Source: Psammoneis japonica (lineage: Eukaryota). Taken from it: a stretch of DNA of 64,000 bases. Shown one piece after another: positions 14,801 through 62,973 of this stretch (its first letter is position 1; every line of letters starts with the position of its first letter). The stretch is from the NCBI GenBank assembly GCA_008632985.1, contig QPGO01000083.1, forward strand, positions 223,075 to 287,074, read 5' to 3'. The notes below the pieces were generated by a model. It had not been told where the DNA came from and made no database searches. It saw only the letters and a program-made list of their open reading frames with translations. The position numbers and the translations under genes were made by a program.

Positions 14801-14849
14801 TCATTTCACTGATTTGAACCAAAAACAAAAGTTGACAAGAGAAATGATC

Positions 14850-33932: not shown

Positions 33933-34129
33933 CTAGAGACAAGCTAGCTAGCAATGGGTACTTATCGTCAACGGTTACTTATTTTTGTGTTTCTACATTT
34001 GAGGGAGATGCTGGCGGTGGGCATTCGAAATCACTCTCACCGTTTTATTTCAATTTAAAAACCACTAACCTTGCTTTCCACAACAATGGCTCGCTCTATG
34101 AACTCTGGGATGAAGTTGATTTTGTCTAG

Positions 34130-35477: not shown

Positions 35478-38400
35478 ATGGCGCAAGTCAATAGCGATGC
35501 GCCGACAACGGCATCCGCTGCAGAGGTTAGAACCTCAAATAATGTTTACATCCTTTCGGAGGAACACGCATGGGTACCAGCCCGAGTGATTGGTCATGAA
35601 GAAACAGAGACAGTGACGGTCTCCATCCCCGTTTATAAGGACGAGCAAGCGATTCAATCCGACGGGGGCAAAGCATCCAAGACTACGACTCGCCAGGTCA
35701 TATCGCTCAAGCATTATCCAAACAGAACATTACCGCTACAAAATGTAAATGAGCATGGTGTTCTCAACGAGGTTGAAGACATGGTTGACCTGCCTTTCTT
35801 ACACGAGGTACGATCTTTGTTCTGCATTTTCTGCTCCTTGAGCTTCTGTTCTAATCGCCAATTCGGCTCTTCTCATAGGCGGCTATTCTTTACAATATCA
35901 AAGCTAGGCATATCCAAGGAAAGCCTTATACCCGGACTGGTGACATTGTAATTGCTGTCAATCCATACAAGGTGAGACACCCTTTGGTATCCTTTTTGGT
36001 ACATTCTATAGCATCATGTCTAACTTTTTTGTTTGTATTTCCAGTGGATGCATGATTTGTACTCGGATGATGTACAGAATAGATATGCAAACATATTGGT
36101 GTGGGATGGTACGTCTTTCTTGCATCCCTTTCTCAAACAAGATTTCAAACTCTCACTCATCCCTCTACGTTTTTAGCATCTGACCACGAAGGCGATCCTC
36201 GCACCTCTATTGAGCCTCATGTCTACGAAACCTCATCCCTCGCGTATCGAGGATTGGCGGTGGACGGTCAAAATCAAAGCATCTTGGTGTCGGGTGAATC
36301 AGGAGCGGGCAAGACAGAGACCACAAAAATTCTCATGAGTCACATTGCGTCCGTTCAGGCGCATTCGTCTCAACATCATGACTCTCCCATTGTCCAATGC
36401 GTGTTGGATTCAAATCCTCTATTAGAGGCGTTTGGCAACGCTAAAACTGTTCGAAATGACAATTCAAGTCGATTCGGAAAGTTTACTCAGTTGCAGTTTG
36501 ATGCCGAGGATCCAACACACGCTGCCTTTTCTGGAAAACGCATACCGAGTTGCGTCTTGGCTGGATCCAAAAGTGAAGTATACCTGCTGGAAAAATCTCG
36601 CGTGGTGGGACATGAAGAAGCAGAGCGTTCCTATCACATTTTTTACCAGCTATTGGCAGCATCCGAAGAAACCAAGACGGACATTTGGGATGGCTTGGCG
36701 GATACGGATAACGAATCCTTTTCGTATGTGGGATGGACCGATACTACTGTGATTGAAGGCAAGACTGATACAGAACGATTCCAACAAACTGTCCGAGCTC
36801 TAGAAATGGTGGGGATAGAGGGAGAGCGCTTCCGTACACTGATGAGAGCTATTTGCATAGTTTTGCAACTCGGTAATCTAACCTTTGAACCGCAGGAAGA
36901 GGACGAAGAACGATCCTGCATAACGTCGACCGATGAATTGCAACGGCTTTCGGAACTCATGGGAGTCGAGGACACGGTTGTCGCCAATAGCTTGACAGAG
37001 CGTACAGTACGGGCACGGAATGAAGTTTACAAGGTCCCACTGCGTGTAGGACAAGCTAACGACACATGTGATGCTTTTGCGAAAGAGATTTATGCAAAAG
37101 CATTCTTGTGGCTTGTACGAAAGATCAATGACGCTACCTGTGCCGAAAATAACTACAACGCTTCAACAAAGTATGCAACCATTGGACTACTTGACATTTT
37201 CGGCTTTGAGTCGTTTGACACGAACAGATACGAACAGCTCACCATTAATCACGCAAACGAGAAGCTGCAATCCAAATTTACGCAAGACATCTTCCGGTCC
37301 GTTCAAGCCGAGTATGAAGAAGAGGGTATCGCTCTGGGCGAAATCACATACCATGACAATGCAGATGTGCTTACATTGATTGAGGGGCGAATGGGTCTGA
37401 TTGCTGTGTTGAACGAGGAATGCGTCCGTCCCAAGGGTAACGATGTCAGTTTCGTTTCGAAGATTCTCACCATGAATAGAGACTCTGACTGCCTCATTGG
37501 AGAAAAATCGTTTCGGGATTATGAATTTGCCGTCCAACATTTTGCAGGCCGAGTCACTTATGATGCGAATGGATTCGTTACAAAAAACATGGACAACTTG
37601 CCCCAAGATTTACTCGATTGTGCGCAAAAGTCCACAAATGAAATCCTAAGTCAGGCTTTGAATGAAGAAGGCAGCATGTCGAAAGTGGGGCCAACATCGC
37701 ACGCCAAGAAGAGACCCAAAGGGAAGGCGGCACCGAAGCGCGACTTGGCGAGGAGAGGTTCTAGTCTAGTCCAGGAATCGGTTTGGGGCAAATTTCGGAA
37801 CCAGTTAACTTCCCTCATGGCGAATCTCAGTCTCACTCGCACGAGATATATTCGTTGCATCAAACCCAATACTGAAAAATTGCCAAGAGTGATGCAGCAT
37901 TTGGCAACAGTGGAGCAGCTGAGATGTGCTGGTGTCGTCGCAGCCGTAACGATATCACGTTCGGCCTTTCCAAATCGTTTGGAGCATGGCGTTGTCTTGG
38001 ATCGTTTCAAATCGCTTTGGACCAAGAAACTGTATTCTGAAGCCATGCATGAGTTGCAGGGATCAAATGACGACATTCAAAGACAACAGGTGGAAATGCT
38101 CTTGTCATCTGCGCTACAGACCCTTGATGTGAGAAAGGAAGACGGGAACGTCACGCGTGCTTTCATTATTGGCAAAACCCGGGCGTACTTTCGAGCAGGG
38201 GCGCTGGAGCACTTGGAGAAGGACCGACTCAAGGGATTGTCTGTCTGGTCTATTGAAATACAACGTGTCGTCCGTGGCTTTCTTGCTCGATCAAGATACC
38301 TCAAGCTTAGAAGGGCGTGCATCACTGCACAAGCAGCCATACGGATGGTATTGGCAAGGAATCGATACTTACGGCTCAGAAAAGCATGCATTTCTATTCA

Positions 38401-39475
38401 GTGCTGGGTTCGATGTCTCCGTGCCGTGTCGGATCTCTTGCGGCGACGCGAATACCAAAAAGCAACCATGGTTCAAACTCACTGGCGAATGGCCGTTGCA
38501 ATGGCCATGCTCAAAAATCACCGAAAGGCCGCAATAACTATCCAAGCCATGGCTCGTGGGGCCATTCAGAGGCCAAAGTTCCGTGAAGCGTTGGTTGAGA
38601 AACGAGAGGAAGCCAAGCTGGAAAATCAGCTGAAATCTCTTCAGAAGAAGCTTGAGGAGGCAGAAGCCCGACGTGTCCAGGCGGAGAAAGATGCAGAAGC
38701 TCGCAGAATTCAAGCAGAGAAGGAAGCAGAAGAGCGCATGCGTGAAGTGGAAAGAAAGCACAAGGAAGAAGCCGCCAAACCAGTTGCGAAAACTCCGGAA
38801 AGTCCTCAAAAGGAGGAAGTAGAGGTTCCGACCCCGGTTTTGGTGTCGGAGCCACCTCGTCCTTTGGTGCCAGAACCACCCAGCGCAGTAGGACAGCTGA
38901 CGGAGCAGCAACAAAATCTCATGGACGAGAGCGGGCGCATGCTGGAATACCTTCGCAAGGAAGTATTCAAACTTCGAGGACAGAATTCTCAGTTGCGTCA
39001 AGACTTTGATCTGCTCAAGGAGAACAACCAGAGATTAATGGACGCCAACGCCTCTGCTGGAGCGTCCTTTGCTGCGTTGAATCAACACTCGAAGCAGTTG
39101 AACAAGACAAACGCCAAACTCGTGGCCGACTTGACTAGTCACAAGCAGCAGATTCACAAGCTCAATCTAGCCCAGATGGAACTAAAAGACGAGCTCAAGA
39201 TGAAGCAAGCAACCTATGTAGCAGAAGTCCAGACGCGTCTGCAGTTTCAAAAGGCAATGGGTAGAATAATCGACATGATTCAGCAAAGGTGCCGCGATAC
39301 TCGACTGGTGGAGGATGTGTTGACACTCAGTGATGAATGTGAGGCTGAATGTATGGATTCGCCGAGAGGAAATGACAACGGACCGTCATCCATGTTTTCC
39401 TCTCCAGCGCCAAATCCAGCCGATTCACAAAGCACCAGGAGCATAACCGGCGCTCTGCGGTCCTTCTTCTCCTAG
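35478..39475 (+). CDS. Myosin (motor domain, IQ motifs, coiled-coil tail); introns 35808-35878, 35972-36044, 36109-36176
   Basis: [50 protein letters not shown], IQxxxRG repeats; GT-AG introns restore the frame. Confidence 0.96.
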
Positions 39476-39904
39476 CTAGAGTAATTAGCTACAAACAGTG
39501 TAATTGAATGAAACGCACGCCGCCACGTTCATTCTAAGTCTTGCAGTACATTGTACAATTAATCCTCTCTCCCTTACCAACTGCTAGACCTATGATCTCT
39601 AGCTAGGTCTAGTACTTCAGGTTACTTCAAACTTTTTTCAGGCCCACACCTCGTCTTGAGTCGAGTCGTCGTCTCGCGGACGAATTGCGCGCCCAGGAAC
39701 GCGCGCGCTAATTTTTTCGCAACCTCAACGTCCGCTTCCGTTTTGAGCGTTGAAGTAAGCGGACATCAGAATTTGCCGCCAACGTCTTCGGCACTTTATC
39801 ACCAACTTGCTTTGTCTGCACCTCTTGTGTCTTGTGTCACATCCATCTGCTTCTTTTGTCTTGGCCTTAGCGTTGGTTCTCATCATTCATTCAAAATCTG
39901 TATC

Positions 39905-41080
39905 ATGAGTGGCACATGCTCTTTGTGTGACACGGCCAAACTGTTGTCGACCGTGTTGGACGGCGCTTCGGAACGAGCCGTGTTGATTTCCAACGACGGC
40001 ACCGTCTTGCACATGAATAACGCCGCCCGTCACTTTTTGTACGCGCCTCCTGATGGAAATGTAGTGCACGTGACGGACTTTTTAGTCTGTGATGATTGGT
40101 CGAGTGTCAAACACTGCCGTGTCGTCATGAAGAATCAAACACAGACGCGGACTGAACGAAACATTCACATCAGCAAACTGGATCCGTGTCCTTGTTGTCA
40201 ACACCAATACTTTACAGCGTACATTTGCAGCAAACACGAGCGTGTCCGGGAGGTGGTGGATCATGCGTTTGATCCCGTCTTGACAGTGGATGAGCAGGGT
40301 ATTATTTGCACCGCCAATGAAGCTGCGTCTGAAACCTTTGGGTACGAAGAAAGCGAGCTCGTGGGACACAATGTGAGCATGATTTGCGGAGGAGGTCATG
40401 CCGGACGCCACGACGACTACATGAAGAAATACATGGAAACTGGAATCAAAAAGGTTATTGGAAAGAACCGTGAGGTTGTGGGAAGAAAAAAGTGTGGAAC
40501 CGAGTTTCCCTGCCAGCTGGGTGTGCGAGAAATATCCGACGTGTCTTCGGGAAAGCGGTACTTTTGCGGTTTCTTCAAGGATTTGACCCTTATCAAACAG
40601 CACGAGGCCGAGTTGGAAGAACGTCAGGCACTGGCACAGGGCATGATTAATGCGTCTTTTGATTGCATGTTTGAAATTGATGAAGGGGGGATCATCAAGA
40701 TTGTAAACGATGCAGCCTGTCACATGTTTGGCTACAGCAGAGAAGAGTTTCTGGGAAGCAACATTTCCATGATTTGCGGTGGTGGGCATGCGGAAAAGCA
40801 TGCAGCGTACATGCAGAGATACTTGACTACCGGCGAAAAGCACATTATTGGACGCAAACGACAGGTCAAGGCGAGACGCAAGGATGGGACAGAACTCGAG
40901 GTGGAGCTCGGCGTGCAAGAAGTCACTCTTTCCACAACGGGCAAGAAGGCCTTTTGCGGATACATTCGTGACTTGACCGAGAGACAAAAGGACAAGCGCG
41001 CACTGCGTAGGCAGCATCAGATGATTCAAAACAAGTTCTTTGGTAGCAGGGAGGAGGAGGACGCAAACGAAGAAGAATGA
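39905..41080 (+). CDS. Multi-PAS-domain sensor protein (two FixL-type PAS), no output domain
   Basis: N.AA...FGY...E..G.N.SMI...H..YM..Y..TG....IG..R.V....K.G.E twice; ATG 39905. Confidence 0.88.
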   Translation: MSGTCSLCDTAKLLSTVLDGASERAVLISNDGTVLHMNNAARHFLYAPPDGNVVHVTDFLVCDDWSSVKHCRVVMKNQTQTRTERNIHISKLDPCPCCQHQYFTAYICSKHERVREVVDHAFDPVLTVDEQGIICTANEAASETFGYEESELVGHNVSMICGGGHAGRHDDYMKKYMETGIKKVIGKNREVVGRKKCGTEFPCQLGVREISDVSSGKRYFCGFFKDLTLIKQHEAELEERQALAQGMINASFDCMFEIDEGGIIKIVNDAACHMFGYSREEFLGSNISMICGGGHAEKHAAYMQRYLTTGEKHIIGRKRQVKARRKDGTELEVELGVQEVTLSTTGKKAFCGYIRDLTERQKDKRALRRQHQMIQNKFFGSREEEDANEEE

Positions 41081-41379
41081 TTAAGTGTCGTGAGTGAAGA
41101 AACAATAGCAGGAGTCGTACTCGTTAATTGTACTGCATAGCACTGTGTTGATGAATGCAGCCGTTGCCACAAGTGACTGCACTCTTTAAATAAATGATGG
41201 ACAGCTAGCTTAACGAAAAATCATGCTGGAAGGGACTCGTTTGTCCAGCAAGCCTCGGCGGATGTAAAAGAGATCGACACTGACCGCTACTGATCAACCT
41301 GTGTCAACAACGCTTCACTCGCGAATAATGCCTTTTAGAATCCACTCCCTCGCGCCATCGCTCGGGTCAGTTTCGTGCA

Positions 41380-42633
41380 CGACGTCTCCTGCTTGAGCCT
41401 TCCAGTGCGGGCTGATTCGTCCCACTGCCATGCGGTGCTGACTCCCCGCATCTGTAAGTGGAAATCAATCAACAGAGTTGGTACGAGACTCAACCCACTC
41501 GTTTCAATGATGAATGTGTTGCTCTCATTGAGGTTGCATCAACTTGTTGGTGCACATTCCTTGCGTTTTCTCCACTTTTGTGCTTCTTCTTTTGTGGCTC
41601 TGCTTCATCAACACCAACCAGCTCTCGTCGTTTGCCATCACTGGAAAACAGGAGGCTGACACTCTCATTCCTGGTGTGAGATTGAGAAGAGCAACAGCAT
41701 GACATGTGATTGAGCCTGTTGGAAGGACCAGGCCTGGTGCTCTTTGCAAACAGGGTGTCGTTGTGTTCCCGCAACAGCCCAACAGCTTTTGGCTCATTGT
41801 CACCGCTTTCATCGCCAGCCATGGCAAAAGTCGATGGTGTTGAGCCACCTGATGCTGCAGGAACACTCCCTGTTGTTCCCAAGGCTTCTCCTGGAGGAAT
41901 GCTGGTTGTTGGGCAGCTGGAATTGGTCGGAGGAGGTGTGACAGAACACACAAGGGGGGGTTGATGGATTGCCGGATGCGCACCTTGAGATCCCGCCAAA
42001 GCCATTTTGGCTCAAAGCAAATCTTTTTGTTGGGTCAAATTGTCAACATTCTTCTTGCACAGATTCTTTTCCCAATGTGGCACATTGGCAACTTTCAATC
42101 TCTCGAAATCACGGTGAGGTTTGTTGAGCGTGCTAAGATCCTTGATTTTCCTGTCCACGACTCTGCTGAAGTCCTTGGAACAACCCGTGGCTGATCTCGG
42201 GAGCACTGCTGAAGACCCCAACTTTGACAAATCAAGGTGAATCTTTGACAATGACTTGGCGCCATTCAAATCAAGCTTCAGTGGCTTCGATTGAAGTTCC
42301 ATTGTGAGCAGCTGATGGACAATTTGACGTGAAAATCGTCCGACACTCAGGTGGTGCAATTGGCAGCGAGCGACAGATGTGAATCAAAACTTCATCCAAT
42401 GAGCATGTGCTTCCCAGCATCAACAGCAACTGTGCAACGCATCGCTTGTCAAATCGTCATGGTCATGCAGTGGCAGGCCTCCGAATTTCACACACCATGG
42501 TGCGGTGTGTTTTTTTTTGTGTGGGATCCTTGAGTCCAGTTGAACGCGATTTCGTTCGAATCGAGCTCTGTGAAGTGATCTGCCCTGCAGCACTTGGTGA
42601 CATCGGAGCTTGAGTCGACGCAGGCCAACTGCG
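41380..42633. mobile_element. Decayed TpA-depleted repeat next to the copia B insertion site
   Basis: Composition only; Tyr-free ORFs. Confidence 0.4.
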
Positions 42634-42638
42634 TAGAG

Positions 42639-42833
42639 AGTTGACATCTGTCAATCTACCTGTCGACTGCGCGCAATCGCGCGCTTCAATTTTCAAATTC
42701 CGCCATCAAAACTCTGCTCGACACTGCAGTCATAATTTTCAGTCAGCAACTTTTGCAACAACAACAGCCACTAGTTTACAACCTTGAGCATCAGCTCTTT
42801 CGACATCTGCAGTTGTGCATCGGCACAACAAGT
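42639..42833 (+). repeat. 5' LTR of copia B
   Basis: Gapless match to 49907-50101 with 12 differences. Confidence 0.95.
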
Positions 42834-43337
42834 GGTCATCGAGCCCAAACGTAGTGTGTAGAGTCTTTAACCGGAACTGCACCGATCCACCGTGTTCTCG
42901 TCAGAACGCGACAGTCATCTCAAGCCGTCGATCGTCCGTTTCAAACGGAATCACCGTTCATCGATTCGACAGACGTCTCCAGTCTGTCGACGTTGATGCC
43001 ACGTACAGCTGAGCCTCCCTCCTTCGTCGACAGGCTCGCACGCATTTTCCCGCCGCCGGAACCGATCCACGGAGCCGGAATCATCATCGTCAAGCGTCAT
43101 CATTTTCGGCCGTTGCGACACCAAACCCGGATTGAGTCGTTTCGAACTCTCCGAGTCTGTGCCAAGTCAAGACCTGCCTCTCACGCCATTCGACGACGAT
43201 GCTCTCGTTGCCGATTGATTGTTGAGCTTCTGCGGCAGTCTCCCAACGATGTGGCGTCAAGAACTTCATTTTGCCGTTTGTGTTTCAAACTCTACGTAGC
43301 TTCAGTGCCAAGTTCTACGCATTGACTCAAATCCACC

Positions 43338-45539
43338 ATGGCCGGAACGCCGTCAAAGACTCCGTCCAAGACCCCCAAGGGTGCCAAGACCCCGCAACAG
43401 AGGAGTCAGACTCCTCAACCTTCTTGAACCGGCAATGGGACACCTGCTGCTCCCGCTGGTAAGAACAGCAGTTCCACCACAGGAGCTAATCAACCTCTGC
43501 CTCCTCCACGGCGTGGAGGGATCCATCCAGAATGTGGGCGACACATGGGCGGTTCTCCGTTAGACGACGACTGCAAGCCCAAGCTGCCTCGTTCCTGCCG
43601 CTCAACTGACCAGTCTCGCGACAAGAAGATTCTACCGCACATCGAACGTGCTCTTCGCGAAGCTCAAGACGGAACACTCGTCGTCAAGTTTGACGGAAAC
43701 CTCGAGCTCACAGACACGACCACCAACAAGCTCGATCAATCCCACTTCGTTCAAGCTGTCCGCACCCTTGTCAAGGAGCATGGCTTGGAGAACTTCTTCG
43801 CCATGAAGCTCGAGAAGAAGGTTGTGTCGCCATTCGACCATCTCCACTCTTTTATGGTCGACGAGGTGATTGCCGAGTGCCTTCATCGCGCCAACGTCGC
43901 CAAGGACTTCACTGCCTATGATGATTACGAGCACAACGATGTCGCTCTCTCCCAATTGGTTGTTGAGTCTAGAATCTCACACCAATTCCGCGAGAAGATC
44001 GAGGTCCAATTCGGACATGACGATCTCTTTGAGCACTGCCCCGGTCAAGTCTATTTGATGATGGCTTTGGATGCTTGCAATGCGTCTGCCACACATGACG
44101 TTGCCCAAGCCGCCGAGGATCTCGATGCTCCATCGCTTGCATCCTACCTGGGTGAGGACGTGACTGAGTTCGCCACCGAAGCTCTCCGTCTCACCAAGCT
44201 GCTCCAAGCCGGGTGTGCGTCACCTGTCAACCTCGGGTCGAGCATTCTCAAGAAGTGCCAAAAGACCTCATGTGAGGCATTCAATTGCAAGATTTACGCC
44301 AAGTTGGACAAGGTGTCGACCATGGAACACAAGCATCGCCTTGGCGATCCCAAGGCGATTGCCGCCAACTCCGACTATGATGAACTCGGGCCCACAGCGT
44401 GCACTTCCTTTTTGCAGAAGGAGCATCGCTTCTGCGTCACCGACAAGGATTGGCCCGGACTTTCCACCAAGCTCCCTCAGAGCAACAACGCTTCCAAGAC
44501 CGGAAAAGGGGCCTGCAATGCATGTGGTGCTCCAGACCACTGGGCCAATGATCCCAAGTGTCCCAAGTGTGCCGAACGTCAGAAGCGCAAGAAAGAGAAA
44601 CGTGAGCAGCGTCAACAGAATGGTCGCAAGGATGACCCGACGGTTCCACCTGCCACTGCACCGCCTCCTGCGTCTTCCGTTACGGTTGATGCTGTCCCTG
44701 CTGACAAACAAGCCAAACTCAAGGAGTTGCTCACCAACGAGCCCCATCGTTACACCCGTCCGGCGGACCTGTCCAAACCCGTCGTGAACAAGTGTGGTTC
44801 GACCACGTGTTTTTGTGGAAAGTGCACTTGCAAGCACACCGGCATTCGGGGGATGTGTGCGAATCACAAGGAGTCAGATCATGTTCGCAAACCACCGAAA
44901 CAAGAACCACCTGCGGCTGGTCTTACCTCCATTGACGACCCAGATTCGGGCGTCCCACCTGGGCCACCCACTCAGACTGCTCCAGACCCAACCAATGCGC
45001 CCGAGCCCTCTCCTGCTGAGGACGAGCTTGTTTGGACTGGATTCCATTGTTGTGTGGTCGAGGACTCGTCTCCTCCCACCCCGTCTGTCATGCGAGTCTC
45101 CTGCAAACCCGCTTCTGCATCTCAGAGGGAGCGCCTGCCGGTTGCAGTCGAGACCATCGAACCTGAAGATGCTGATGACTTCAGCGATTGCTTCGATGCA
45201 CATGACGACCTGTCTTGGGACGATTCCATTGTTGTGTTTCCGCCCATGACTGCTCCTTCATCCAGTGTCCCCACTTCAGGCACTCTGGCTCCTGTGGCAG
45301 AGTTCTTCTTCGATGCCGAGTCCGGACCCGAACCCGTGCCGGATCCACCGGTTCCCCAAGCTCACCATCCATTGCCATGGGATCTCCTCAAGCTCCCGCT
45401 CTTTTGGATCTCTGCAATGCTTTGGGAAGGTCTCCTGTGGCTCGTCTGCTCCCAGGATGATCCCCCCCCTCCTCCCCGCTGTGAACGTCGCCTCAAGCAC
45501 GCCCTGCGCTGCATCGCCACCCCCATCATTGGGGCGTGA
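43338..45539 (+). pseudogene. copia B gag with CCHC zinc knuckle
   Basis: CNACGAPDHWANDPKC; start inferred at ATG ~43338 with a frameshift into ORF 43545-45539. Confidence 0.75.
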
Positions 45540-48500
45540 TTGCGTGCGCAATTGCGCTTTGGCATTTTGTGTGCAGCGGCGCTGTCCCTCCCCACCCCTT
45601 TCAATCATTGGACCGCCTCTCTTCTCCAACATGCAAAGTTGTCTCTGCTCTCGATGAGCGCGTCGATCTGTCGCCTGGTGCGTTCGTCCAGTGCCATGCC
45701 ATCAAGGTCAGACAATTCAAATGTGAGTTGGCGTGCTCAGAGGGAGACAAGCAAGACACCGCCACTCTGCCTTTCGAACTTTCCAAGTTGGTTGACAAGA
45801 GTGACAACGACGATTTCTTTGATGCGCACACGGAGCGCCCCGTCCATGCGGAATGCTTCTTCGATGCTGCCACCTTCCGCGAGTCTGTCTGCTCAAGCCC
45901 GGATGTCTTCGGCATTGCTGACTTGTGTCACGCCTGCTACTTCGTCGACTGCACCAATGCTCCGGAGCTCGCTACGGAGGATCCATCGGCTTCCCCCGCT
46001 TTGCCGACCTCCGCTGCACTTCGTGCTGTTTCCGGGGAGACCCAACTTACGCGTCTCGCCGCTGATCCCCAGGCCCTCTTCCACATCGGACCAAGTGATC
46101 TCCAGGTTGTTTTTGATGCTGGTGCCTCACAGGCCATCACTCCTGACGAGAAAGATTTTGATGGTCCGATCAAGTGCTGCCGGACCCCGCTCCGCCTCGG
46201 CGGCATGGCTGACGGCATGTGCATCCCTGGTGAGGGCACCGTCACGTGGACCTTTCAAGCCAGGGAGGGTCACGAAATTGCTGTCCAGCTCCGTGCCCAT
46301 TTCGTCCCATCCTCCAAGGTTCGCCTGCTTTCTCCACAACGTCTCTTCCATGCAGACGGCATTGAAGGACATTTTTGGGGTGACAGTGAGATTTTCAAGG
46401 TTTGTTTCACAGACATGCCGGAGTTGATGCTCGAGTGCGATGAGCGCTCCCACTTGCCGGTTGGCTGCACGACTCTCGGTTCCATCCATGCACCACAAGT
46501 CAATTTGAGCACTGTCAGTGACCCGGACAATCTCAATCTGTCTGCTGGACAGAAGCTTCTCAATGAATGGCATGCGCGCTTTGGGCACTTACATTTTCCC
46601 AAGATCCAAGCTCCACTCCGCGGCCATCTGTTCGAGGCCATGAAATTCAAGGCAGCATCCAAATGCGACATTCCAAAATGCGACACATGCGAATGTTCCA
46701 AGGCTCATCGCCGTTCTTTGAAGTCTGCCATTCACAAATCCGACCCCAAGCGCGATGGAGCATTGAAGGCTGACCATCTCAATCCCGGCCAGTCCGTCAG
46801 CGTCGACCATTTCGAATCGCGTCTCAAGGGCCGCACCTGTGATTCACACGGCAAACCGTCCTCCCAGCAGTGTGTTGGCGGCTGCATCTTTGTCGACCAC
46901 GCCTCTGGTTACATCCACGTTGAACACCAAGTCGGTTTCTCCGCAGTCGAGACTGTTCGAGCAAAACAGGCATGTGAGACCATGGCAATGGGACACAGCA
47001 TGATCGTCCAAACTCACCTCACCGACGGCGGCGCTTTCAAGGCCAACCAGTTCGTTTCCCACATCCACAACTCCCAGCAACGCATGCACTTTTGTGGCAC
47101 CAATGCTCATCATCAAAATGGTGTTGCCGAACGCTCCATTCGGCCCATGTCCAATGTGGCTCGCGCCATGATCCTCCATGCTTCGATTCACTGGCGTGGC
47201 GGCATCGACAGCTCTCTGTGGCCCATGGCAGTGCACCATGCTGCCCACATCTACAACACTGCTCCCGGCGCCCATGGTCTGTGTCCCGCCGACATCTTTG
47301 CTGGCTCTGCCGTCCCACGCCACCGCCTCCATGATCTCCACGTTTGGGGTTGTCCTGTCTGTGTCTTGGATCCCAAATTACAGGAGGGCAAGAAACTTCC
47401 CCGTTGGCAGCCGCGTTCTCGGCGTGGTGTCTTTCTCAGACTCAGCAATGTTCACGCCAGTGAGGTGCCATTGGTCCTCAATCTCAATGCTGGCTCCATT
47501 GCTCCCCAGTGCCACGTCATGTTTGACGATCTCTTCACCACGGTTGCTTCGATCGTGAGGGAGAGCGAACCGCCGGATCACTGGGAAGAATTGTGGTTGG
47601 AGAACACCACTCAAATTCCCTTGGACTCGTCTGACAGACCGTTGTTCCTTCAAGATGACTGGCTTGCTCCTGCTGAACTTGAACAGAAACGACGACACGA
47701 GACTGGGGAACGCAACATTCGCGCTGCACGTCAACAGCAGCAGAACTTGCCAAAACCCACTGAGAAGCCACCACCTGCAACGGATCCTTTGCAACTCCAA
47801 ATCCACCGCCGTCTACACCATCGATGCCAACAACTGCAGTTGATCCATCACCGACACCACCGCCACAAACACCGTCGCTTCAAAACCCATCATCGCCGAT
47901 GCCTCCAGTTGATGATCCTCCACCTTCAGTCGTACGTCCGCCATCTGCTGCTGGCGATGGTCCGGGCACGTCAGTCCCATCCACGACTGCTCCAGTCCCA
48001 CCTGAACCCTCATCCACGACTGAGACACCAGGGGTGCGCCGATCCCAACGGTCGAACAAGGGTGCGCGCACAACTGCTCGTTTCGCCGACGAAGCATGTC
48101 TGGCTTCTGTCATCCCTGACGATGTTGGAGGACAACAGGCTCAGCTTGCCCATTTGGCTGAGATCCAGACTGACTGTGATTCGGGTGTTTTGGACATTCA
48201 GGACCCGCGGATCTACGCCACTAAAGTCAAACGCGATGCGGACAATCCGAACATTTGCGAGGCTCTCTCGGGTGATTTTGCCAAGCAGTGCATTGAAGCC
48301 ATGAAGACAGAGGTATCTGCTCTTGTCCATCGTAAAACGTGGCAATTTGTGAAGCGGGAGAAGCCAATGAATGTGCTCAAGTCCACGTGGGCATTCAAGT
48401 TGAAACGATTGCCGGATGGCACGCCGCTCAAGTTCTCAAAGCGCGATTTTGTGTCCGAGGAGATCTACAAAAAGAGGGAGTTGACTGCTTCGAGACCCAC

Positions 48501-49883
48501 GCTCCAGTGGTCCAACAGTCGACCATCCGTCTCGCATTGAGTGCCGTCCTACAAGAAGGATGGACCACCCGTCAGGTTGATTGCACCAACGCTTTTGCGC
48601 AGGCCGAGATGACGGAAGACGTTCACATCGAACCACCCAAGTGTTTTGCTCCCAGTTCGGGATCCAATGTTGTCTTGAAGCTGCTCAAGAGTCTCTGCGG
48701 TCTCAAGCAAGCTCCCAAGTGCTTCTTTGATAAGCTGCGTGAAGGATCATTGGAACGTGGATGGACCCAGTCGCAAGTCGACCCGTGCCTGTTTTTCAAG
48801 GACGGTGTGATTTGTGCAGTCCATGTTGATGATGCTGTCCTCGCTGGCAAGAATGGAGCCGCTCTAGAAAATGAGATCAAGGCTCCAGGCATCCAAGACG
48901 ACGAACAACGCCATGCATTCGAGTTGCGAAACGAGGGAGAAGTTGGTGACTTCCTCGGTGTCAAGATTCGCAAAACCGGACCCAAGGAATTCCTCCTTGC
49001 CCAGCCTGGACTCATTGACAAGACCCTCAAAACAGCTGATGTGGAAGATTGCCGCTCTTCTCCCACTCCTGGCACTGCCTCCCCATGTCATGCGGATAAA
49101 GAGGGAGCCGAATTCGACGAGAACTGGGACTGCCGTTCCGTCATCGGCATGTTGATGCACCCATCATCCAACTCCCGACCAGATGTCTGCTGCGCCACGC
49201 ATCAAGCCGCTCGTTTCTCATGTGCTCCCAAGCATTCTCATGCGATTGCGGCGAAGCGCATTCTGCGCTACTTGCAAGGCACTGAGGACAAGGGACTCCA
49301 TCTACGCCCTGGCGACAACGAACGTGTTGATTGTTTCGTTGACGCCGACTTCGCCGGCCTCTGCGGTCACGAAGACACTCAAGATCCGGTCAGCGTCAAG
49401 TCCTGCACCGGACATGTCATCTTGCACTGCGATTGTCCTGTTTTATGGGTTTCTAAGCTACAGACGCAAATGGCACTCTCCACAATGGAAGCCGAGCACC
49501 TTGCTCTGTCGGCTGCGATGCGCGATCTGACCCCGATTCGTGAAATTTTGAAGGAATTCAAGTGTCATGTTTTCGGTCTCACGGATTACAAGACCCCTGC
49601 CACCACCAAGTCCAAGGCCTTTTCAGATGTAAAGGATGGTGCGATCCCTTCTTCAGCAGTTTATGAAGACAATCAGGCGTGCCTCAAGTTTGCGAAAATG
49701 GCCAAGTTGTCTCCACGCACCAAACACATTGGCACTCCCTGTCATTGGTTCCGCACCAAGGTCGAGGCTCTTGAGATCCAGATTGAGCCTGTAGGAACTG
49801 ATTCCCAGTTAGCTGATCAATTTACGAAGGGACTTATTACTGACAAGTTTGAATCTGGTCGGTTGAGTCTCTCAGGCTGGTGG
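45536..49883 (+). pseudogene. copia B pol (protease, GAG-pre-integrase, integrase, RT, RNaseH), frameshifted and hypermutated
   Basis: VFDAGAS (PR), WHARFGH...CDTC, SVDHF/HLTDGG/NGVAER (IN), KARFCVRG, CGLKQAP, HVDD (RT), VDADFAG, EAEH, YEDNQAC, QLADQFTK (RH); frameshifts near 47800 and 48433. Confidence 0.93.
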
Positions 49884-49906
49884 CTCTACCTACGGTTGAG
49901 AGGGAG

Positions 49907-50101
49907 AGTTGACGTCTGTCAATCTACCTGTCGACTGCGCGTAATCGCGCGCTTCAATTTTCAAATTCCGCCATCAAAACTCTGCTCGATATTGCAGTCA
50001 TAATTTTCAGTCAGCGACTTTTGCAACAACAACAGCTACTAGTTTACAACCTTGAGCATCAGCTCTTTCGATATCTACAGTTATACATCGGTATAACAAG
50101 T
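49907..50101 (+). repeat. 3' LTR of copia B
   Basis: Follows the PPT; followed by TSD TAGAG. Confidence 0.95.
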
Positions 50102-50169
50102 TAGAGTGTACATTTTAGGCGGCGAGCGACAACACATAACACGGCATAATCTTTTTGGGTGATCCAACC

Positions 50170-51713
50170 ATGATGAACTCTGAATCAAGCCAAGAACATG
50201 CAGACGATATGTGCAAAGCATGCGGGATACCACGTGGGTGGATTGGAGCTACCGGTGTTCCCCTTGAGGCCGGTGTTTACCCTGAACCTGAAAGATCACT
50301 AAGGTCGTGCTCCGCTTGCGGTCACTATTACAACAAATTGTCATTACCAGAACCACAAGCAGATCGTTTGATTGCCTGTTGCCTTGCTCGCGATTGGGAT
50401 GAAGCACTTGAATGTGTAACTGCTGCACCGCATGCCGCGAAATGCATTTCGAGTGTCAACGGCATTACTCCGATGCAAATGGCAATCCAACACCGAGCTC
50501 CGCTAGCTCTTATTCGAGCTCTTGTCAGCGCTTGGCCAGAGTGTTACGTTGTCGATGAATTCGAATTTTACCGCGATCCCCTTTTTTACGCAATCCTCGA
50601 ATTTGGACTCTCTGAATACACATACAATTTGATGGAGATTTTTGTTGAGGCCGATAACAACGTCCTTCTTGACGTATCGTACATGGTAACTCTTATCGGG
50701 CATATCTGTCGCACTTTTTCTCAAAAGTTTATAGAGGCTTCTGAACTTCCAGCATCACTTCCCATAAATGACGTTCTGGCCTATCACAATGAAGAAAGTG
50801 GAATTGATGCAGGCGAGATTGAGCTGGCTTTTCGGCACCTAACGTTACTAGTCAAGGCGGAATACCACCAGTCCATTCATGTGCACGATTTTTCTCTCGT
50901 GCATGCTATTGCTGGCTGCCGTGATCCGTTGCTGCGGCCAGCGGGTTTGTTGGACCTTGCTATTCGTTTCCATCGACAAGAGCTCGAACAAGTGGATTTG
51001 CATGGAAACTCTCCTCTCCATGTCGCTTCATCGACCACTAACCGTAACAAGAACGAATATGTTGATTACCCGAGTCCACCTTACTGGTTGGATGAGAGTC
51101 AAATTCCAGATTGCATTTATGATTTGTTTTCCAGAAAATTTGATGGATATGGGTTTTACTGTGATTTTTATGATTACCTTCAAGCGAATTGCCGTTGCGT
51201 CGAGTGTAAGTGTTCCGAAAAGACTGACGAAATGGGTTGCACGCAATGCTTTCACAAGTATTACAAAGAAACAGAGTGCACCTGCTCTGAGGAGGAATTC
51301 AACGAGTGCTACACTTCTGGTGATGAAATCTTCGATAGATACTTTTTACCAAAGATGAGCAACGAGCACCGATGGACAAAGAGTCCGAGATTCAAATGCT
51401 TGCAGAGGCATGTCCCAACTCTGCCCGCCTCTATAACAATAGTGGCGAGCTCCCCATACATTGCGCCATTGCGTGTGGGAAGGTTTGGGATGGAGGAATC
51501 AACCATCTTGTCAAAGCATTCCCAGAGTCCTTGGCGTTGAAGCATAAGGGCTTGCACCCATTCGCGTTTGCGGCTCTGGGTGAGAAGTCGGATCTCGACA
51601 CGGTTCTAGAATTATTACTCGCTGATCCTTCTCTGGTCAAGTGTGCAGTGCCTGACTGTGCTGCCGCTATTTCTCCACAGCAGTGCTCAAGCAAGAAACG
51701 TAAGCACGAATGA
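50170..51713 (+). CDS. Ankyrin-repeat-like protein with N-terminal CxxC...CxxC; possible intron 51206-51354 (otherwise a frameshift)
   Basis: GITPMQMAI, GNSPLHVA, GELPIHCAI, LHPFAFAA; removing GTAAGT...AAAG joins ORF 50155-51540 in frame to ORF 51372-51713. Confidence 0.7.
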
Positions 51714-51799
51714 GTCGTCCGGATAAAATAGAGCAGATTTGATTCATTGCTTAATGGTGGAAGACATTGCTTCGTGATAAATCTGATGCGTTGCAGAAA

Positions 51800-54700
51800 T
51801 GGTTAACCATGGACTATCTTAAACACATGACAGACAGGTGGTGGAGGAGAACATTCACTCACCGCACGTCAATGCTGTGTGGAATGTTTGCAACTCTCTG
51901 CCCAAGTCTCGTCAAAGTGTGTGGGCATGGAGCACTTCCGAAGTGTGACCCCAGTTTCAAAACAGTCAAGATGAAGTGCATTGTGGTCATTTGCTTTCCT
52001 CCATCAACACCATTGATGGATCAATTCACAGTTGCTCCCTGTCATTCCTTGGCACAGTCTTGCTGTTCCATGCTTGGGCACTCATGCATTCACAACCTTG
52101 TTGCTTTGTTGCCACACGCACAGCCATTTTGGAGCAACAGATGTTGAAGCCATCTCACCTCTGAGAATTTCATGCTGGCCATTTAGTTGCATCAACCATC
52201 ATGGAAATCAACTGCAAGCTTTGACAAGAGAGGAGGAAACTTCCTTTTCACACCAATGTCACCCTGTTGAATGACTTTCCATGTCCAGCACAGTTGAAAA
52301 GTCCATTCTTCTTGTGCATTGTTCCCTTGTTTTACTCAGTCTGATCTGAGTCTTTTTTCCAACTTAGATGAATTGTTGGATTGCACTGCACAAAGCACAT
52401 GTGCTCACCCACGATCTGCTGCTTTCAACCAGTTCCTGCAGTCTGAACAGCAGAAGTTGGTCTTTTTTTTTTTGGCAAAGAATGCAGCGCCCCGTGGCCC
52501 TGGATCCAGACTTGCTGCCAGCATTTGGACACACTCAATGAACCGGCATGCCTTGACAGTTCTTGGTTCTTGATCCAGACTCACTGCCCCAGCATTTGGA
52601 CACACTTGAGGAACTGGCATGCCTTGACAGTTCTTGGTGCTTTTGAAGTGCTTGCCAGCAAAATCTCAGTCAGCAGTCTTGAAGGCCTTGCAGGAGTCAC
52701 CAGTGGCATTGATGCAGGTGCTCTTGTTCTGCTCATGGATGATTGTTTTTGTTTTGCAAGCCTCTCAAAAATCCTCAATGATGCGAGCAGTGGTTTGCAG
52801 AATGTCAAAGCATGACGGGTGTGGCCACAACCCTTCTCCAGAAAATTGCACTTGTCCACCAGATCGGGGCTCATCAGGAAGTTCTGAGCTCTCTTGTTGT
52901 GTGCATCAGACAATGCTGTCATTTGCATGTGGTCAAATGACTTTGCACCTGCAGAATCATCAGGAATGCAAGTGGCTTGGGCTTGACAATGTTGAGTCTT
53001 AATGTTGGGTCCACATTTCAACATTCTAACAGCTGCCATGCATTGGAATGATTCTGTCACACACTGGAAGAGGCAAGTTCTTGGTTTTGTGAGAGTTGTG
53101 CATCACAGTGTTCCAGTCATCATTGTTTTAATTCCACTGGGATGATGCTGGCTCTCGTGTGCCCCCCTGTCATTGCACTGGCACTTGAAGTTGTTGTTCT
53201 TTTAATTCTTCTGCTGGCACACACACTCTTTTGGGCTTGTTCACTCCAATTGTTGTGCTTCCATTCATTTTTCTTTAAATTCTGCTGATGTGCCAACTCT
53301 CATGTGTCCCCCTCTCTGCCACAATCCTCATCAAATCCTTTTTCTCATGGCAAACAAAGAACAGAAGAAATGTTGTGCAAGCACTGAATGACACATTGCA
53401 CAGAAGTGCACAACAGCAGCAGTTTTGCACAAACTCTCATGTGTCCCTCCCACCACAATTCTCATCAAATCCTTTTTCTGCACTGAGCTTCACGACTTGG
53501 CAATCATCATCATGTGCAAGCTTCTTGTTGAGTGAATCAAGTGGAAACTTGCAAAGGCTGTCAACATCTGCAACTCTAAAAATGTTTCCAGTGGTGCCTC
53601 ATTTTGGTGAAGGAAATGAAAAACATGCGGTCACCAATGGACTTGCATGAGCACAAAAGTGTGGCAGAGACACTTCGTGGCATGCACAAAGGTCGCGCAC
53701 TAGTTTCACAAACTCTGCCAGCAGCTTTTATGATGGGTTGTGCCTGGTGAAACTCCAACCATCCCTGTCACTTTGTTGTGAGCATGGCCTTCCACGGATG
53801 CAGAAGCTGATGCTGTTCTGGCTTGACATGAATGGATCAGACACTTCAGAAGAAAAAGCTGGTTTCTTCATTTTCTTCTGCAATGACAGCTGCTTTTTCT
53901 TTGCAGTGGGTCTCGAAAGTGAGGCAACAGCAATGGAAGGGTCATTGCTGCTTTCAGCCACAACAACACTTGATGATGATGATGATGAGAGTGAATGCAA
54001 ATAAATCACCTTGTCAACTTTCTGCAACCCAACAGGGACGTCACTCATCCCAATGTGCAAGAGTGATGCATTTGAGACCTTGGAACAACCTTGCTGTTTG
54101 TCAAGATGCTGCAGCCTTGTCTTGCATTGAAGAACCTTGAACTGACACATTCCAGCAGCAAGTGAACCAAAAAGTGCACAAAAACAACATTGGCGTGATT
54201 TTTAGCACATGGTCTCTGACTTGCGAATGAGCTTTCACCACCAAAAGCATGGATTCACACAAATGCAAATGTTTTGCAACACTGACAAGACTTGTGTCAG
54301 TGTTGCAACGTCATTGTTTTTGTGCAATCAAACAATGGATGATTTTTGCCAAAACATTTGAAGATTCATGTGCCATTGCTGTTTGAAGGCTGACATGAAA
54401 CATTTGTGCATGCTTTTTGTCGCATCAATCTGTTTCTTTTGCACAAAAATTTCTGCATTGTGAGTGCTGATGCACAGTCAGTGTTGTTTTTGCACAAAAG
54501 TTTTGTCACACATGAGTCATGAAGACTTGAACACCCATGAAAAAAATGTTTGAATGTTCATGCTCTGATCAAATGTAAAAGCCAGAATGCACAAGTGTTT
54601 TAATGAACAGCCCAAATGCATGAAGCTCACACAAATTGTGTTCAAAACAGATTGTCATTTTGTGGGTCACCCGGGGCTGGAACACGTCAATTGAAGGATG

Positions 54701-55290
54701 TGTCATCAAGTCAATGAAAGGTGAGTGTGTCAACGTTGGTGAGGCATCACCGCTCACTTTTCGCAAAAAGTTCATGGTTGATTTCAAGTTGCGCTTGAGA
54801 CTTGAGATCCCATCAGATGCAAGGTCAAACTCTCATGAGCTTCTTTGATCCAACCTTGAATGTGAGCATGTTGCTGGAGTCATCCCCCCGTGTTTGTCCC
54901 AAAATTGCTGGTGCATTTGAACAAGGTTTTTTGCAGTGTTTGTTTTTGAACAGAAGAGTTGTTCACAGCCACACTCAAGTTGAGCACAAAAACAAGAACC
55001 ATCAGCACTGTGATCAAAGCACAATGATGCGATGATGACAATCATCAACATGTCTCAAAAACACAATTTGCCATCTGCCCAATTTTCATGTGCACACAAT
55101 CTTTGACACACAACAAACACAAAATAAATGAGAGTTGGCAGACGGACCTCCTCCGTCACAGACTTGCTTGTGGCTTGTTTTCACCACTGCAGCAAAGCAC
55201 GGAGAAATTCAGGTGAGAAATCATGCAAAACATGAAGCCATTTGTCCAAGTTCAAGCTGAAAAAGTGGCAACCGACCGGCCTTAAGTGCA
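51800..55290. mobile_element. Decayed repeat cluster, including a ~71-bp tandem duplication at ~52520-52640
   Basis: TpA and CpG depletion; CAGCATTTGGACACACT...GGCATGCCTTGACAGTTCTTGGT twice; holds the copy of the 8630-9113 repeat. Confidence 0.6.
54230..54690. repeat. Copy of the 8630-9113 repeat
   Basis: Direct co-linear similarity. Confidence 0.85.
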
Positions 55291-55329
55291 GCACTTGCAC
55301 ACCGTAAGGCACACAGGGGCCGCCAATCC

Positions 55330-56250
55330 AGTGTTTGTCATTTGTTGTTCAGTGGCGCATGGTGTTCTTGTGGACTGTGGAGGAGAACTGGGAGTGGCCG
55401 TGGAGTGAGTCAATCATGTGGGAGCACGTGAGAGCACTTGCTTCAGAGTCATGAGCTGTGGACTCTGTTGGATGAGGGATGGGCAGTCCCAAAAATTTGA
55501 TTGAGAGGGTGGATGGGGCCAGTCTCAGGTCATTGGTGGCTGGGGTCTCCCCAATCAGCACCAGCAGAAAATTGCGCTGTGTTGCGTGCTCTGTGTCGGC
55601 GAATGGTTCGTCACAGTTCTTTGCTGCATGCTGGACACATTGCTGCTGGTGTTGCAGGCACTTCTGCAGACTGGCACAGGCAGTCTGAGGGTGGTGAATT
55701 GTGATCTTGGCAAGTCCCTGGATGACCAAGATTCATGACTCAGCTCTTTCAGCTGGCCAACGGTCGCGCGCGTCTGTCTCTCCGACGAAGCTTCCGAGGC
55801 AGTGGCTGCCAGACTTGACAGCAAAGCCTGGATCTCCAAAGCATGCTCTGACATTTTCCAGGTTGCATTCTGGGACTGCTGTGATGTTCTTGGAGTTGTT
55901 GGCAGGGCAGCATCCGTGTTTGGGGCCTTGGGCTCAGAGAGTCAGGAGGAAAAAATCCCGCAGGATGTTGAATTTTCCCGTGCTGCTGCAGAGTCATTGG
56001 TGCACCAAGGGGTGAATGCATCTTTGAAATGCTCACTCATCTCATGGACCAGTGGAAGAAGTCCTGGCCTGCACGCTGCCATGCCAAGTGGACCGCCCTG
56101 TGCGACGCCTTCTTTGCTGAACAAAATGAAGGCGGTTCCGAAGTTCCCCCGGAGGATGATCAGGACACTCCAACACTTGTGCAGCTGTTGAAGGTGAACC
56201 TTGCACCGGATGGCCAAAGGTGCCTTACGTTGTGTGGCATTAGAATCCTG
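55330..56250 (-). mobile_element. Non-LTR retrotransposon (CRE/R2-like) RT remnant
   Basis: SKEGVAQGGPLGM...GLLPL...PWCTNDSAA corresponds to QGDPL...WYADD; downstream LGLPIPHP. Confidence 0.75.
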
Positions 56251-62344: not shown

Positions 62345-62973
62345 TCTTGACAGCTTGTCCAGCTTTGGACATGACAGCTCCAAGTTTCCACATTTTTTGT
62401 GAACTCTTTCTGATGCTGTGCCCATCACTTGGCCTTGTTGTTGGATTGCCATGGCTGTCTGCTGCAGAAGTGGCATTTTTGTTGAGGAAATCTGTCCCAG
62501 GGATGAGATGGCTCATGTGTGGCGAGGGAGACCCTGTGCAGAACAAAACAACAATGAGGAAAGACACTGCACATGTGAGTTTTCAAGAATGTAAACATGT
62601 GAGGCCTCAATGAAACACACAGTGTGAATGGTGATGCACAAGGCTCGTCAATGGACAGCTGGGTGATGATGTTGTCAGCACAAACCTTGACAAGATTTTT
62701 CACCATCAGCTGCCCATGTGAACCTGTGTGTTCTCGAGCTGTCACATGCCTTGTGCCATGACGTGTGATGTTCCATTGAGATTTCACAACAAAACACTTC
62801 AGAGACGACCACATTTTTGAAATCGGTGAAACGCCATTGCCTCTGTGTTATTTTGATCCGCGAGCCAGAAAACACTCCCCAAAATCCAAAATTGCTCTAT
62901 CGGGTGCAGAGCAAAATGTCCTGGGTTGTACCAGGCCACGTAGAAAATGAACGGGCTGAGAACTCCGGTAGTA
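62345..62973. repeat. Copy of the 880-1808 repeat, ending ...GAGAACTCCGGTAGTA
   Basis: Co-linear similarity; the terminal part keeps TpA. Confidence 0.8.

Follow-up and report, generated by a model that had tools for sequence, protein, structure and literature searches.

TpA-specific hypermutation of a copia-type retrotransposon and neighbouring repeats in the diatom Psammoneis japonica

How can a retrotransposon lose nearly all of its tyrosines and keep long open frames? The question is raised by a copia-type long terminal repeat (LTR) retrotransposon, here called element 1, at 42636-50101 on the + strand of a 64,000-nucleotide stretch of the Psammoneis japonica genome (assembly GCA_008632985.1, contig QPGO01000083.1, positions 223,075 to 287,074 of the forward strand). 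The whole of this stretch, hereafter the window, was analysed. An earlier note on the same DNA had described a systematic replacement of Tyr by Cys or His in the conserved copia motifs of positions 46800-49760 and had ascribed it to changes at TpA dinucleotides. The evidence makes it very probable that a TpA-specific mutator, working at the level of DNA on domains of transposons and repeats, struck the element after its integration. The target dinucleotide, the direction of the change, the use of both strands, the timing after integration, the limits of the affected domains and the relative speed are established by the data given below.

Tyrosine replacement and TpA depletion in element 1

The reverse transcriptase (RT) and RNase H frame of element 1 (555 aa, 48336-50003, + strand) was aligned with 40 homologs, and the 270 columns conserved in at least 80% were compared. 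The element agrees with the homologs at 229 of these columns and differs at 41. Tyr was kept in 1 of the 12 conserved Tyr columns, the others having become His (5), Cys (4), Val (1) or Phe (1), whereas other residues were kept in 228 of 258 columns (Fisher p=3e-9), each non-Tyr residue type being retained in 57-100% of its columns. Lys (14/14), Gln (13/13), Phe (17/17) and Ser (11/11) were kept throughout, and the intact Lys, Gln and Phe columns indicate that no general drift from AT to GC has occurred. All the RT and RNase H motifs listed in the earlier note (ETHAPV, VDCTNAF, VHIEPP, LCGLKQAP, HVDD, CRSVIGMLMHP, TGHVILH and EAEHLA) are present, and its reading of Tyr as the ancestral residue holds at every one of these sites in the 40-homolog consensus.

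In a larger set of 120 homologs, the 12 RT and RNase H Tyr columns read HCHCHCHYFHHC in the window, with 1 Tyr and 10 Cys or His, whereas 118 of the homologs have at most one Cys or His in the same columns. None has more than two, so that intact homologs with Cys or His at the same positions, a case that the note had raised, were not found among the 120. In the integrase-bearing frame (939 aa, 45485-48304, + strand), the 12 columns in which Tyr is the commonest residue among 150 homologs are occupied by Tyr (1), His (4), Cys (3) and other residues (4). The two motifs cited from this frame, GCPVCVLDP and PQCHV, are both there. At the former site Tyr stands in 86% of the homologs, as had been supposed, whereas at the latter Phe prevails (70%) and Tyr is found only in the nearest relatives. 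The count of about four Tyr per frame is correct (4 of 939 and 4 of 555 residues), and the frame lengths, given as 922 and 554 aa, become 939 and 555 aa from stop to stop.

The replacements bear out the proposal that the ancestral state was TA and that the changes are directed at TpA. The two main outcomes for Tyr, Y>H (TAY>CAY) and Y>C (TAY>TGY), have similar frequencies (5:4 in RT, 4:3 in integrase), and Y>R, in which both TA bases are changed, was seen in 0 of 12 columns. The enrichment extends to other TA-containing codons. In the conserved RT columns the L>S change uses TCA, both L>P changes use CCA and the V>A change uses GCA, i.e., all four are TTA, CTA or GTA turned into TCA, CCA or GCA, and all five first-position A>G changes (three I>V, one M>V and one T>A) are preceded by a codon ending in T. 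Single steps from TpA to CpA or TpG explain at least 18 of the 41 differences. Ordered along the RT, the 19 events form 12 strand runs against 10.5 expected by our own count, indicating the absence of processive runs.

At RT residue 61 (48516-48518), an invariant Trp has become Gln by the two-step change TGG>CAG. This probably records a nonsense TAG intermediate that was later erased by the TpA process.

The depletion is equally clear at the nucleotide level. The observed/expected ratio (o/e) of TpA is 0.16-0.19 in element 1 and 0.07 in its core, and 11 TpA remain in 44924-48214. The o/e values are raised for CA (1.3) and TG (1.4) and near normal for AT, AA and TT (0.97-1.15) and for CG (0.9), which argues against both a general AT>GC drift and CpG decay. 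A general AT>GC bias was accordingly rejected, AT, AA and TT not being depleted. CpG decay, which the earlier note had also excluded, was rejected because it makes the wrong base change for Tyr>Cys/His and because the CpG o/e of the element remains at 0.9. At codon positions 1-2, 2-3 and 3-1, the TpA o/e is 0.13, 0.23 and 0.14 in the three frames of the element, compared with 0.49, 0.48 and 0.58 in nine host open reading frames (ORFs) of the window. The host genes of the window have a TpA o/e of 0.4-0.9 and a CpG o/e of about 1, and the GC content is 0.55-0.57 in depleted sequence against 0.46-0.50 around it.

The copia family is not natively TpA-poor. All 68 related metagenome loci have a TpA o/e of 0.38-0.92, and the lowest of their 467 1-kb windows reaches 0.21, whereas 55 of 125 such windows here fall below 0.15. 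Expressed per kb, TpA numbers 2.4 in the integrase core and 12.5 in the RT region of element 1, compared with 55.6 in the RT regions of relatives (range 21.6-80.5; 37 loci). The relatives share at most 62% protein identity with the element, and their synonymous sites are too saturated for ancestral inference at the nucleotide level.

Within the element, the hypermutated domain extends over 42636-49450 (TpA o/e 0.00-0.26 per 500 bp, CpG o/e 0.7-1.3), and is followed by a spared 3' tail at 49451-50101 (TpA o/e 0.40-0.70), which adjoins a host gene starting at ~50140. Of the 72 residual TpA, 24 lie from 49454 on and 23 from 49587 on. The effect is thus not confined to 46800-49760, as had been described, and it spans the element from the 5' LTR to ~49450 and recurs in many other parts of the window.

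LTR pairs and the timing of the change

Element 1 is bounded by 198-nt direct repeats that are 94% identical. The 5' LTR, reported at 42636-42833 with its start probably at 42639, is hypermutated and retains 4 TpA, whereas the 3' LTR (49904-50101) is not hypermutated and has 13. The target-site duplication (TSD) TAGAG was read directly at 42634-42638, and the identical pentamer lies beyond the 3' LTR at 50102-50106. Three successive + strand frames stand between the LTRs. These are a gag-like frame (703 aa, 43428-45539), which matches no Pfam family and has 7 Tyr in 703 residues, the integrase-bearing frame, in which gag_pre-integrs and SH3_retrovirus both score under the Pfam cut-offs and phmmer matches go down to E=5e-161, and the RT and RNase H frame, with RVT_2 at E=6e-28 (98.5 bits against a cut-off of 31.6). 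A purine run at 49898-49908 (+), directly 5' of the 3' LTR, may from its position act as a polypurine tract, and the sequence 3' of the 5' LTR may resemble an initiator-tRNA primer site.

Because the integrase is encoded upstream of an RVT_2-type RT, element 1 is assigned to Ty1/copia, and it also has the two direct LTRs with a TSD of this family. The YXDD motif of the family is absent; HVDD stands at RT residues 163-166, where YVDD is the consensus of the 40 homologs. Given the general role of YXDD, inactivation of the RT by HVDD is plausible. Judged from its sequence, element 1 would be a dead copy within Ty1/copia and not an element outside the family. Its nearest proteins are from marine metagenomes and diatoms.

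The two LTRs of a retrotransposon are identical at integration. Those of element 1 now differ at 12 positions, and all 12 differences are transitions. Of the 13 TpA in the 3' LTR, nine are CA or TG in the 5' copy; of its 12 CpG, two are CA in the 5' copy; and one of the 148 other bases differs. No site has TA in the 5' LTR but not in the 3' LTR. Because all the TpA losses are in the 5' copy, these results indicate that the 5' LTR was mutated after insertion and that the 3' LTR was not.

Another, older LTR element (element 2; 4.55 kb) is found at 2247-6800 on the - strand. Its 245-nt LTRs (2247-2491 and 6556-6800) have the ends TGACAG..CTGTCA and are flanked by the TSD CTCAG (2242-2246 and 6801-6805), both elements thus having perfect 5-bp TSDs. 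A minus-strand 884-aa frame has no Pfam match, and no RT was recognised in element 2, which may be non-autonomous or too degraded. In the Atlas, the best score of this frame is 0.86, as a lead only, and the matches are diatom hypothetical proteins and clusters partly with RVT_2 or zf-CCHC. Opposite this frame, 4342-5628 (+) gives a sub-threshold GAF match (E=2e-4), probably by chance in stop-poor DNA.

The LTRs of element 2 differ by 8 CA<->TG doubles, 8 CG<->CA/TG changes, 1 TA<->CA/TG change and 3 other events, with 2 transversions among the 20 events, and they share 2 TpA and 5 CpG. A CA in one LTR and a TG in the other imply one hit per LTR on an ancestral TA or CG. CpG decay would predict only ~0.6 such doubles (our own estimate, from 5 shared and 8 single CpG), and the doubles are therefore attributed to independent TpA hits in both LTRs, at ~0.87 per site. 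A control pair of host paralogues (50185-51067 and 63024-63909) has 2 doubles in 126 events, and the units of a 181-bp tandem array differ at 35 places, 16 of which are CA<->TG doubles. The fraction changed per LTR in element 2 is ~0.87 for TpA, ~0.31 for CpG and ~0.008 for other sites (3 changes in ~190 bases). TpA mutation is accordingly estimated to be ~100-250 times as fast as mutation at ordinary sites and several-fold faster than that at CpG.

Copies of element 1 also differ from each other. One public DNA sequencing run matches the locus (X1; 0.49 of sampled words), and no RNA run with the locus is listed among the public runs. At 46614-5 the window has CCA and other X1 contigs have CTG, the homologs having Leu; at 46694-5 the window has TGT and other contigs have CAT, the homologs having Phe or Tyr. 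With CTA and TAT as the ancestral codons, these differences represent independent hits on one TpA in different copies. Taken together, the LTR pairs, the differences between copies, the strand balance and the absence of strand runs rule out the sense RNA or the cDNA as the main substrate and indicate that double-stranded genomic DNA was hit independently at many sites. The element was thus altered as integrated DNA, and not by RNA editing.

TpA-free blocks, flank preference and open frames

The window was scanned for TpA and CpG o/e in 500-bp bins. Two composition states were observed, with borders sharper than one bin; the TpA o/e goes from 0.0 to >0.4 within 500 bp at 17000, 19000, 26500, 41500 and 56000. 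Bins with a TpA o/e below 0.25 total 35.5 kb of the 64 kb, including a partly depleted region at 27501-29500.

The largest TpA-free block (1-17000) has a TpA o/e of 0.00-0.21 and, from ~8000 on, a CpG o/e of 0.00-0.39. It holds a copia RT relic at 15014-16402 on the - strand (tblastn E=1e-30), and the block at 19001-20500 holds a copia integrase-end relic at 19584-19771, also on the - strand, found by tblastn with homologs. No aligned Tyr is kept in either relic. The block at 25001-26500 holds the 181-bp tandem array (25824-26484), and a short TpA-poor block lies at 34001-35000 (o/e 0.06-0.23). The older block adjoining the 5' LTR of element 1 (41501-42635) has a TpA o/e of 0.00-0.03 and a CpG o/e of 0.37-0.62, and the mutated domain of element 1, which ends ~450 bp inside the element, continues upstream into it. 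The block at 52001-56000, which is partly a high-copy repeat and is related to 8542-9481, and the block at 60501-62500 are free of both TpA and CpG. In ~8-17 kb and 52-55 kb, the CpG o/e is 0.0-0.4 and that of CA/TG rises to 1.8-2.1 in complex sequence that has hardly any of the two self-complementary pyrimidine-purine steps.

Dispersed repeats are common to several of the TpA-free blocks, and a Pfam search of 64 open frames from these blocks gave only three sub-threshold matches (GAF, RVT_2 and CTF_NFI). The blocks are relics of transposable elements and repeats, the older ones of which are also CpG-depleted. Young elements without TpA but with CpG, and old relics without both, fit a faster mutation of TpA than of CpG. 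The absence of TpA and CpG with high CpA and TpG could mark old transposon graveyards throughout the genome of this diatom.

Several regions stand out by themselves. At 8001-17000, 52001-55500 and 60501-62500, the TpA and CpG o/e are 0.0-0.4 in complex, non-repetitive sequence. The segment 54010-55343, related to 8542-9481, is a very high-copy repeat with a summed contig depth of 1131-3775 against 61 for unique DNA. For 27501-29500, the TpA o/e is 0.11-0.33 with normal CpG and no recognisable domain, and a 73-bp repeat is shared with 7567-7639; this may be a young, partly mutated insertion. Nested inverted repeats (24629-24735/26640-26746, 96%; 24274-24338/27564-27628, 94%) bracket the tandem-array block and may belong to a DNA transposon or foldback element.

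Among the host sequences, the paralogous ORFs 50185-51067 and 63024-63909 are 85% identical over 888 bp, have no Pfam match and show normal TpA and CpG; diverged gene duplicates are evidently not targeted. A myosin ORF at 36083-39475 has its best named relatives in Phaeodactylum (61%), Nitzschia, Fistulifera, Mayamaea, Fragilaria, Odontella and Thalassiosira, the best unnamed one reaching 72%.

The survival of TpA depends on the flanking bases. Relative to the host background, survival is 0.00 for ATAT, 0.01 for ATAC/GTAT, 0.05 for ATAG/CTAT and GTAC, 0.09 for ATAA/TTAT, 0.15-0.31 for GTAA, CTAG, CTAC and CTAA, and 0.63 for TTAA. The ATA/TAT class differs from the rest with p=8e-16, and the ranking is similar when the young blocks are compared with the 68 relatives. 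The comparison of outcome (TG or CA) by flanking base with relatives was noisy, and survival by context alone was used. Fungal ADAT-dependent mRNA editing prefers UAG. The flank preference seen here differs from this and from that of ADAR, and we speculate that it reflects the ease of opening alternating A/T steps.

An A:T>G:C change at TpA turns TAA and TAG into CAA, CAG, TGG or TGA and creates no new stop in any frame. Stops per kb in the blocks number 2.3 for TAA, 1.4 for TAG and 24.8 for TGA, compared with 8.9, 8.1 and 18.6 in the background, and open frames of at least 100 aa number 3.1 per kb in the blocks against 2.4 in the gene-bearing background. The presence of 30 overlapping open frames is thus accounted for by stop-poor depleted DNA, in which dead elements look coding.

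The mutator, its rivals and related systems

The sequence of events would be as follows. Element 1 inserts, and a DNA-level mutator then turns TpA into CpA or TpG, by A:T>G:C transitions at TpA only and on a strand chosen at random site by site. The mutated domains coincide with transposons and repeats and stop within a few hundred bases of gene borders, at a rate about two orders of magnitude over ordinary substitution and several-fold over methyl-CpG decay. In the proteins, missense changes fall on every TA-containing codon: Tyr becomes Cys or His, Leu becomes Ser or Pro, Val becomes Ala, and a codon-initial A turns into G where the preceding codon ends in T. TAA and TAG stops are lost and none gained, with the result that dead elements keep long open frames. 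By analogy with the proposal made for Bigelowiella natans, the process may be enzymatic and serve as a genome defence linked to silencing. As to the chemistry, deamination of adenine in 5'-TA-3' to inosine is tentatively preferred, and an oxidation of the TpA thymine that lets it mispair with G is the less likely of the two. TpA being its own complement, adenine- and thymine-based chemistry leave the same trace in the sequence.

The signature is known from one other system. In B. natans, mutation-accumulation lines gave a rate of ~6e-7 per site per generation in integrated giant-virus and virophage regions, where 230 of 231 mutations were A>G or T>C and all of these fell on TpA (Mettrop et al., bioRxiv 10.64898/2026.01.13.699255). 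The available part of the same preprint also describes 124 TpA-poor clusters, an excess of RT and DDE domains in coding sequences of low TpA content and an ADAT2 homolog as a proposed candidate; diatoms are not mentioned in that part of the text. As described there, nearly all changes in both systems are A>G/T>C, fall on TpA alone and yield TpG or CpA by strand, and bounded regions of foreign or selfish DNA become TpA-poor, CpA- and TpG-rich clusters. The systems differ in host, a diatom (Stramenopila) here and a chlorarachniophyte (Rhizaria) there, and in targets, LTR retrotransposons, a tandem array and old repeats here taking the place of integrated viruses. Depletion is near saturation in the window (o/e 0.0-0.15), compared with 0.45 in the B. 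natans nucleocytoplasmic large DNA virus (NCLDV) region, and, unlike in the B. natans account as far as available, it is coupled in time to CpG decay and strongest in ATA/TAT flanks. The B. natans mutations were measured in real time, whereas the rate here is indirect, from LTR pairs. Whether an active mutator directed to silent chromatin deaminates adenine (or oxidises thymine) at the TpA of double-stranded transposon DNA in this diatom lineage, at ~100-250 times the background and several-fold over methyl-CpG decay, and is homologous to the B. natans system, is in our judgement evenly poised.

A homology-triggered process resembling repeat-induced point mutation (RIP) with the opposite chemistry, in which paired duplicates are mutated at TpA, is improbable. 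It would account for the fact that all the clearly affected sequences are or were repeats (LTR elements, the tandem array and dispersed repeats) and that the diverged gene pair (85% identity) was spared. However, the 3' LTR, which recurs as the 5' LTR and in the LTRs of other copies, has lost none of its 13 TpA, and the mutated domain ends inside the element and not at a repeat edge. The B. natans NCLDV region is, moreover, stated to be single copy in the part of the preprint available (bioRxiv 10.64898/2026.01.13.699255). A RIP-like sensor should treat both LTRs alike, whereas a silent domain ending at an active gene would not, and chromatin-linked targeting by the mutator therefore appears favoured over homology sensing. 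Ascomycete RIP is similar in being a DNA-level transition hypermutation of repeats and transposons on both strands with a dinucleotide o/e signature; it makes TpA from CpA/TpG, lowers GC and creates stop codons, whereas the process here destroys TpA, raises GC and cannot create stops, and the spared 3' LTR argues against purely RIP-style homology sensing. Fungal RIP itself was rejected, TpA being depleted and GC raised, the opposite of C>T at CpA.

Editing before integration, with adenosines of the RNA (by ADAR- or ADAT-like enzymes) or of the cDNA deaminated and copies inserted already damaged, is very improbable. Retroelements do have RNA and single-stranded cDNA intermediates, copies may have a large part of the TpA loss in common, and ADAR-type enzymes favour a 5' U, according to the available part of the B. 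natans preprint (bioRxiv 10.64898/2026.01.13.699255). LTRs that were identical at insertion nevertheless differ at 9 of 13 TpA in element 1 and by 8 doubles in element 2, coding-strand A>G and T>C are equal without strand bias, and the tandem array and unrecognisable relics carry the identical signature. As the sole source of the changes, pre-integration editing is largely refuted by the LTR pairs. The same distinction applies to APOBEC3 and ADAR in animals, which likewise cripple retroelements by deamination-type transitions, ADAR preferring a 5' U; they act on cDNA or RNA before integration, with a bias to one strand and matching LTRs, whereas here both strands were used and the divergence of the LTRs followed insertion.

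A modified TpA base in silent chromatin might have been misread during library amplification or sequencing; the CA and TG outcomes look random, and the contigs over the element are highly fragmented (1379 pieces on 20 kb). Such an artefact is nonetheless most unlikely; the misreading would have to reach ~100%, and the old blocks are found in clean contigs of single-copy depth with 0 differences. X1 contigs equal the window without difference over 36001-42519, with the old block 41501-42519 in one contig at a depth of 61, and also over 51623-54656 at single-copy depth. The clean contigs that span the old TpA-free DNA measure 357-1112 bp, with one of 9.5 kb, and have no CA/TG bubbles. The fragmentation is explained by a multi-copy family. 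The summed contig depth over the element family is 400-750 against 61 for unique DNA, from which the family is probably multi-copy, X1 contigs being no basis for copy numbers or allele frequencies. The assembly is scaffolded, with a gap of 282 N at 1109-1390 followed by an (AC)16 microsatellite at 1391-1423, and this matters for the trust to be placed in repeat regions.

Native composition or selection, whether avoidance of TpA/UpA (e.g., for RNA stability) or GC-biased gene conversion, would fit the mildly low TpA found everywhere (host genes o/e 0.5-0.9) but can be dismissed, since catalytic and structural Tyr were destroyed, relatives have normal TpA, depletion is equal in all codon phases, other A/T contexts are untouched and block borders are sharp; selection against UpA was rejected on the same loss in all phases and the same destruction of conserved Tyr.

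Methyl-CpG decay also feeds CpA and TpG, and has left its mark on the older blocks and on 2 of the 12 CpG of the 5' LTR. It acts on another dinucleotide with the opposite base change, is slower and cannot make Tyr codons into Cys or His codons.

Several points weigh against a TpA-specific, post-integration mutator. The TpA-loss signature was seen in 0 of the 68 related environmental elements, and is hence not general in diatoms, although the peptide-pattern search by which they were found may miss hypermutated copies. No de novo event was seen, all events being deduced from fixed differences. The interior of element 1 could be a mosaic of copies, the contrast between the LTRs depends on a correct assembly, and X1 may be the assembly data of the window itself and so not independent support. 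Of the 217 differences between window and contigs, 40 were listed, and 0 of these are simple TA<->CA/TG differences. This suggests that much of the TpA loss is common to copies, which is awkward if HVDD killed the RT before the spread; copies may have been mobilised in trans, multiplied through segmental duplication or derived from a master with less damage. Chromatin-linked targeting, for its part, is argued from the spared 3' LTR only, and depends on the correct assembly of a probably multi-copy family.

The literature places the mutator as follows. A full-text search returned the B. natans preprint as the sole report of the signature and no report from a diatom. Element 1 resembles the diatom CoDi copia elements (Maumus et al. 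2009, PMC2806351), as described in the available part of that paper, in its LTRs, 5-bp TSD and integrase before RVT_2, no reference CoDi sequences having been compared; the words hypermutation and dinucleotide are absent from that part. In the available part of a Phaeodactylum mutation-accumulation study, mutation is biased GC>AT, and a term search there did not find the signature (PMC6604790). Nor did a term search of the available part of a 2025 preprint on diatom transposons.

The locus clearly exemplifies a TpA-specific hypermutation of selfish DNA that is known from one preprint, and adds both a lineage and a set of targets to it. What is new here, besides, is the evidence that the change followed integration, its rate relative to other sites, its preference for certain flanks and its coupling to CpG decay. 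The B. natans case, as far as described, concerns two integrated viruses with modest long-term depletion, whereas the diatom case reaches saturation on retrotransposons and repeats, and the process thus becomes a candidate for a lineage-spanning genome defence rather than the curiosity of one alga.

For genome analysis, the combination of TpA o/e with CA<->TG doubles in LTR pairs provides a cheap diagnostic. In diatom annotation, dead transposons with long frames on both strands will be called genes, and "proteins" that are poor in Tyr and rich in Cys/His should serve as a warning. Ages of LTR elements estimated from substitutions will be seriously in error if TpA and CpG sites are left unmasked.

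If the mutator is homologous to that of B. natans, such a "reverse RIP" defence would be old and widespread in the Stramenopila-Alveolata-Rhizaria (SAR) supergroup, and would explain transposon graveyards that lack both TpA and CpG and are full of long, stop-free ghost ORFs. Diatoms are genetically more tractable than B. natans, and a search for the enzyme could become feasible.

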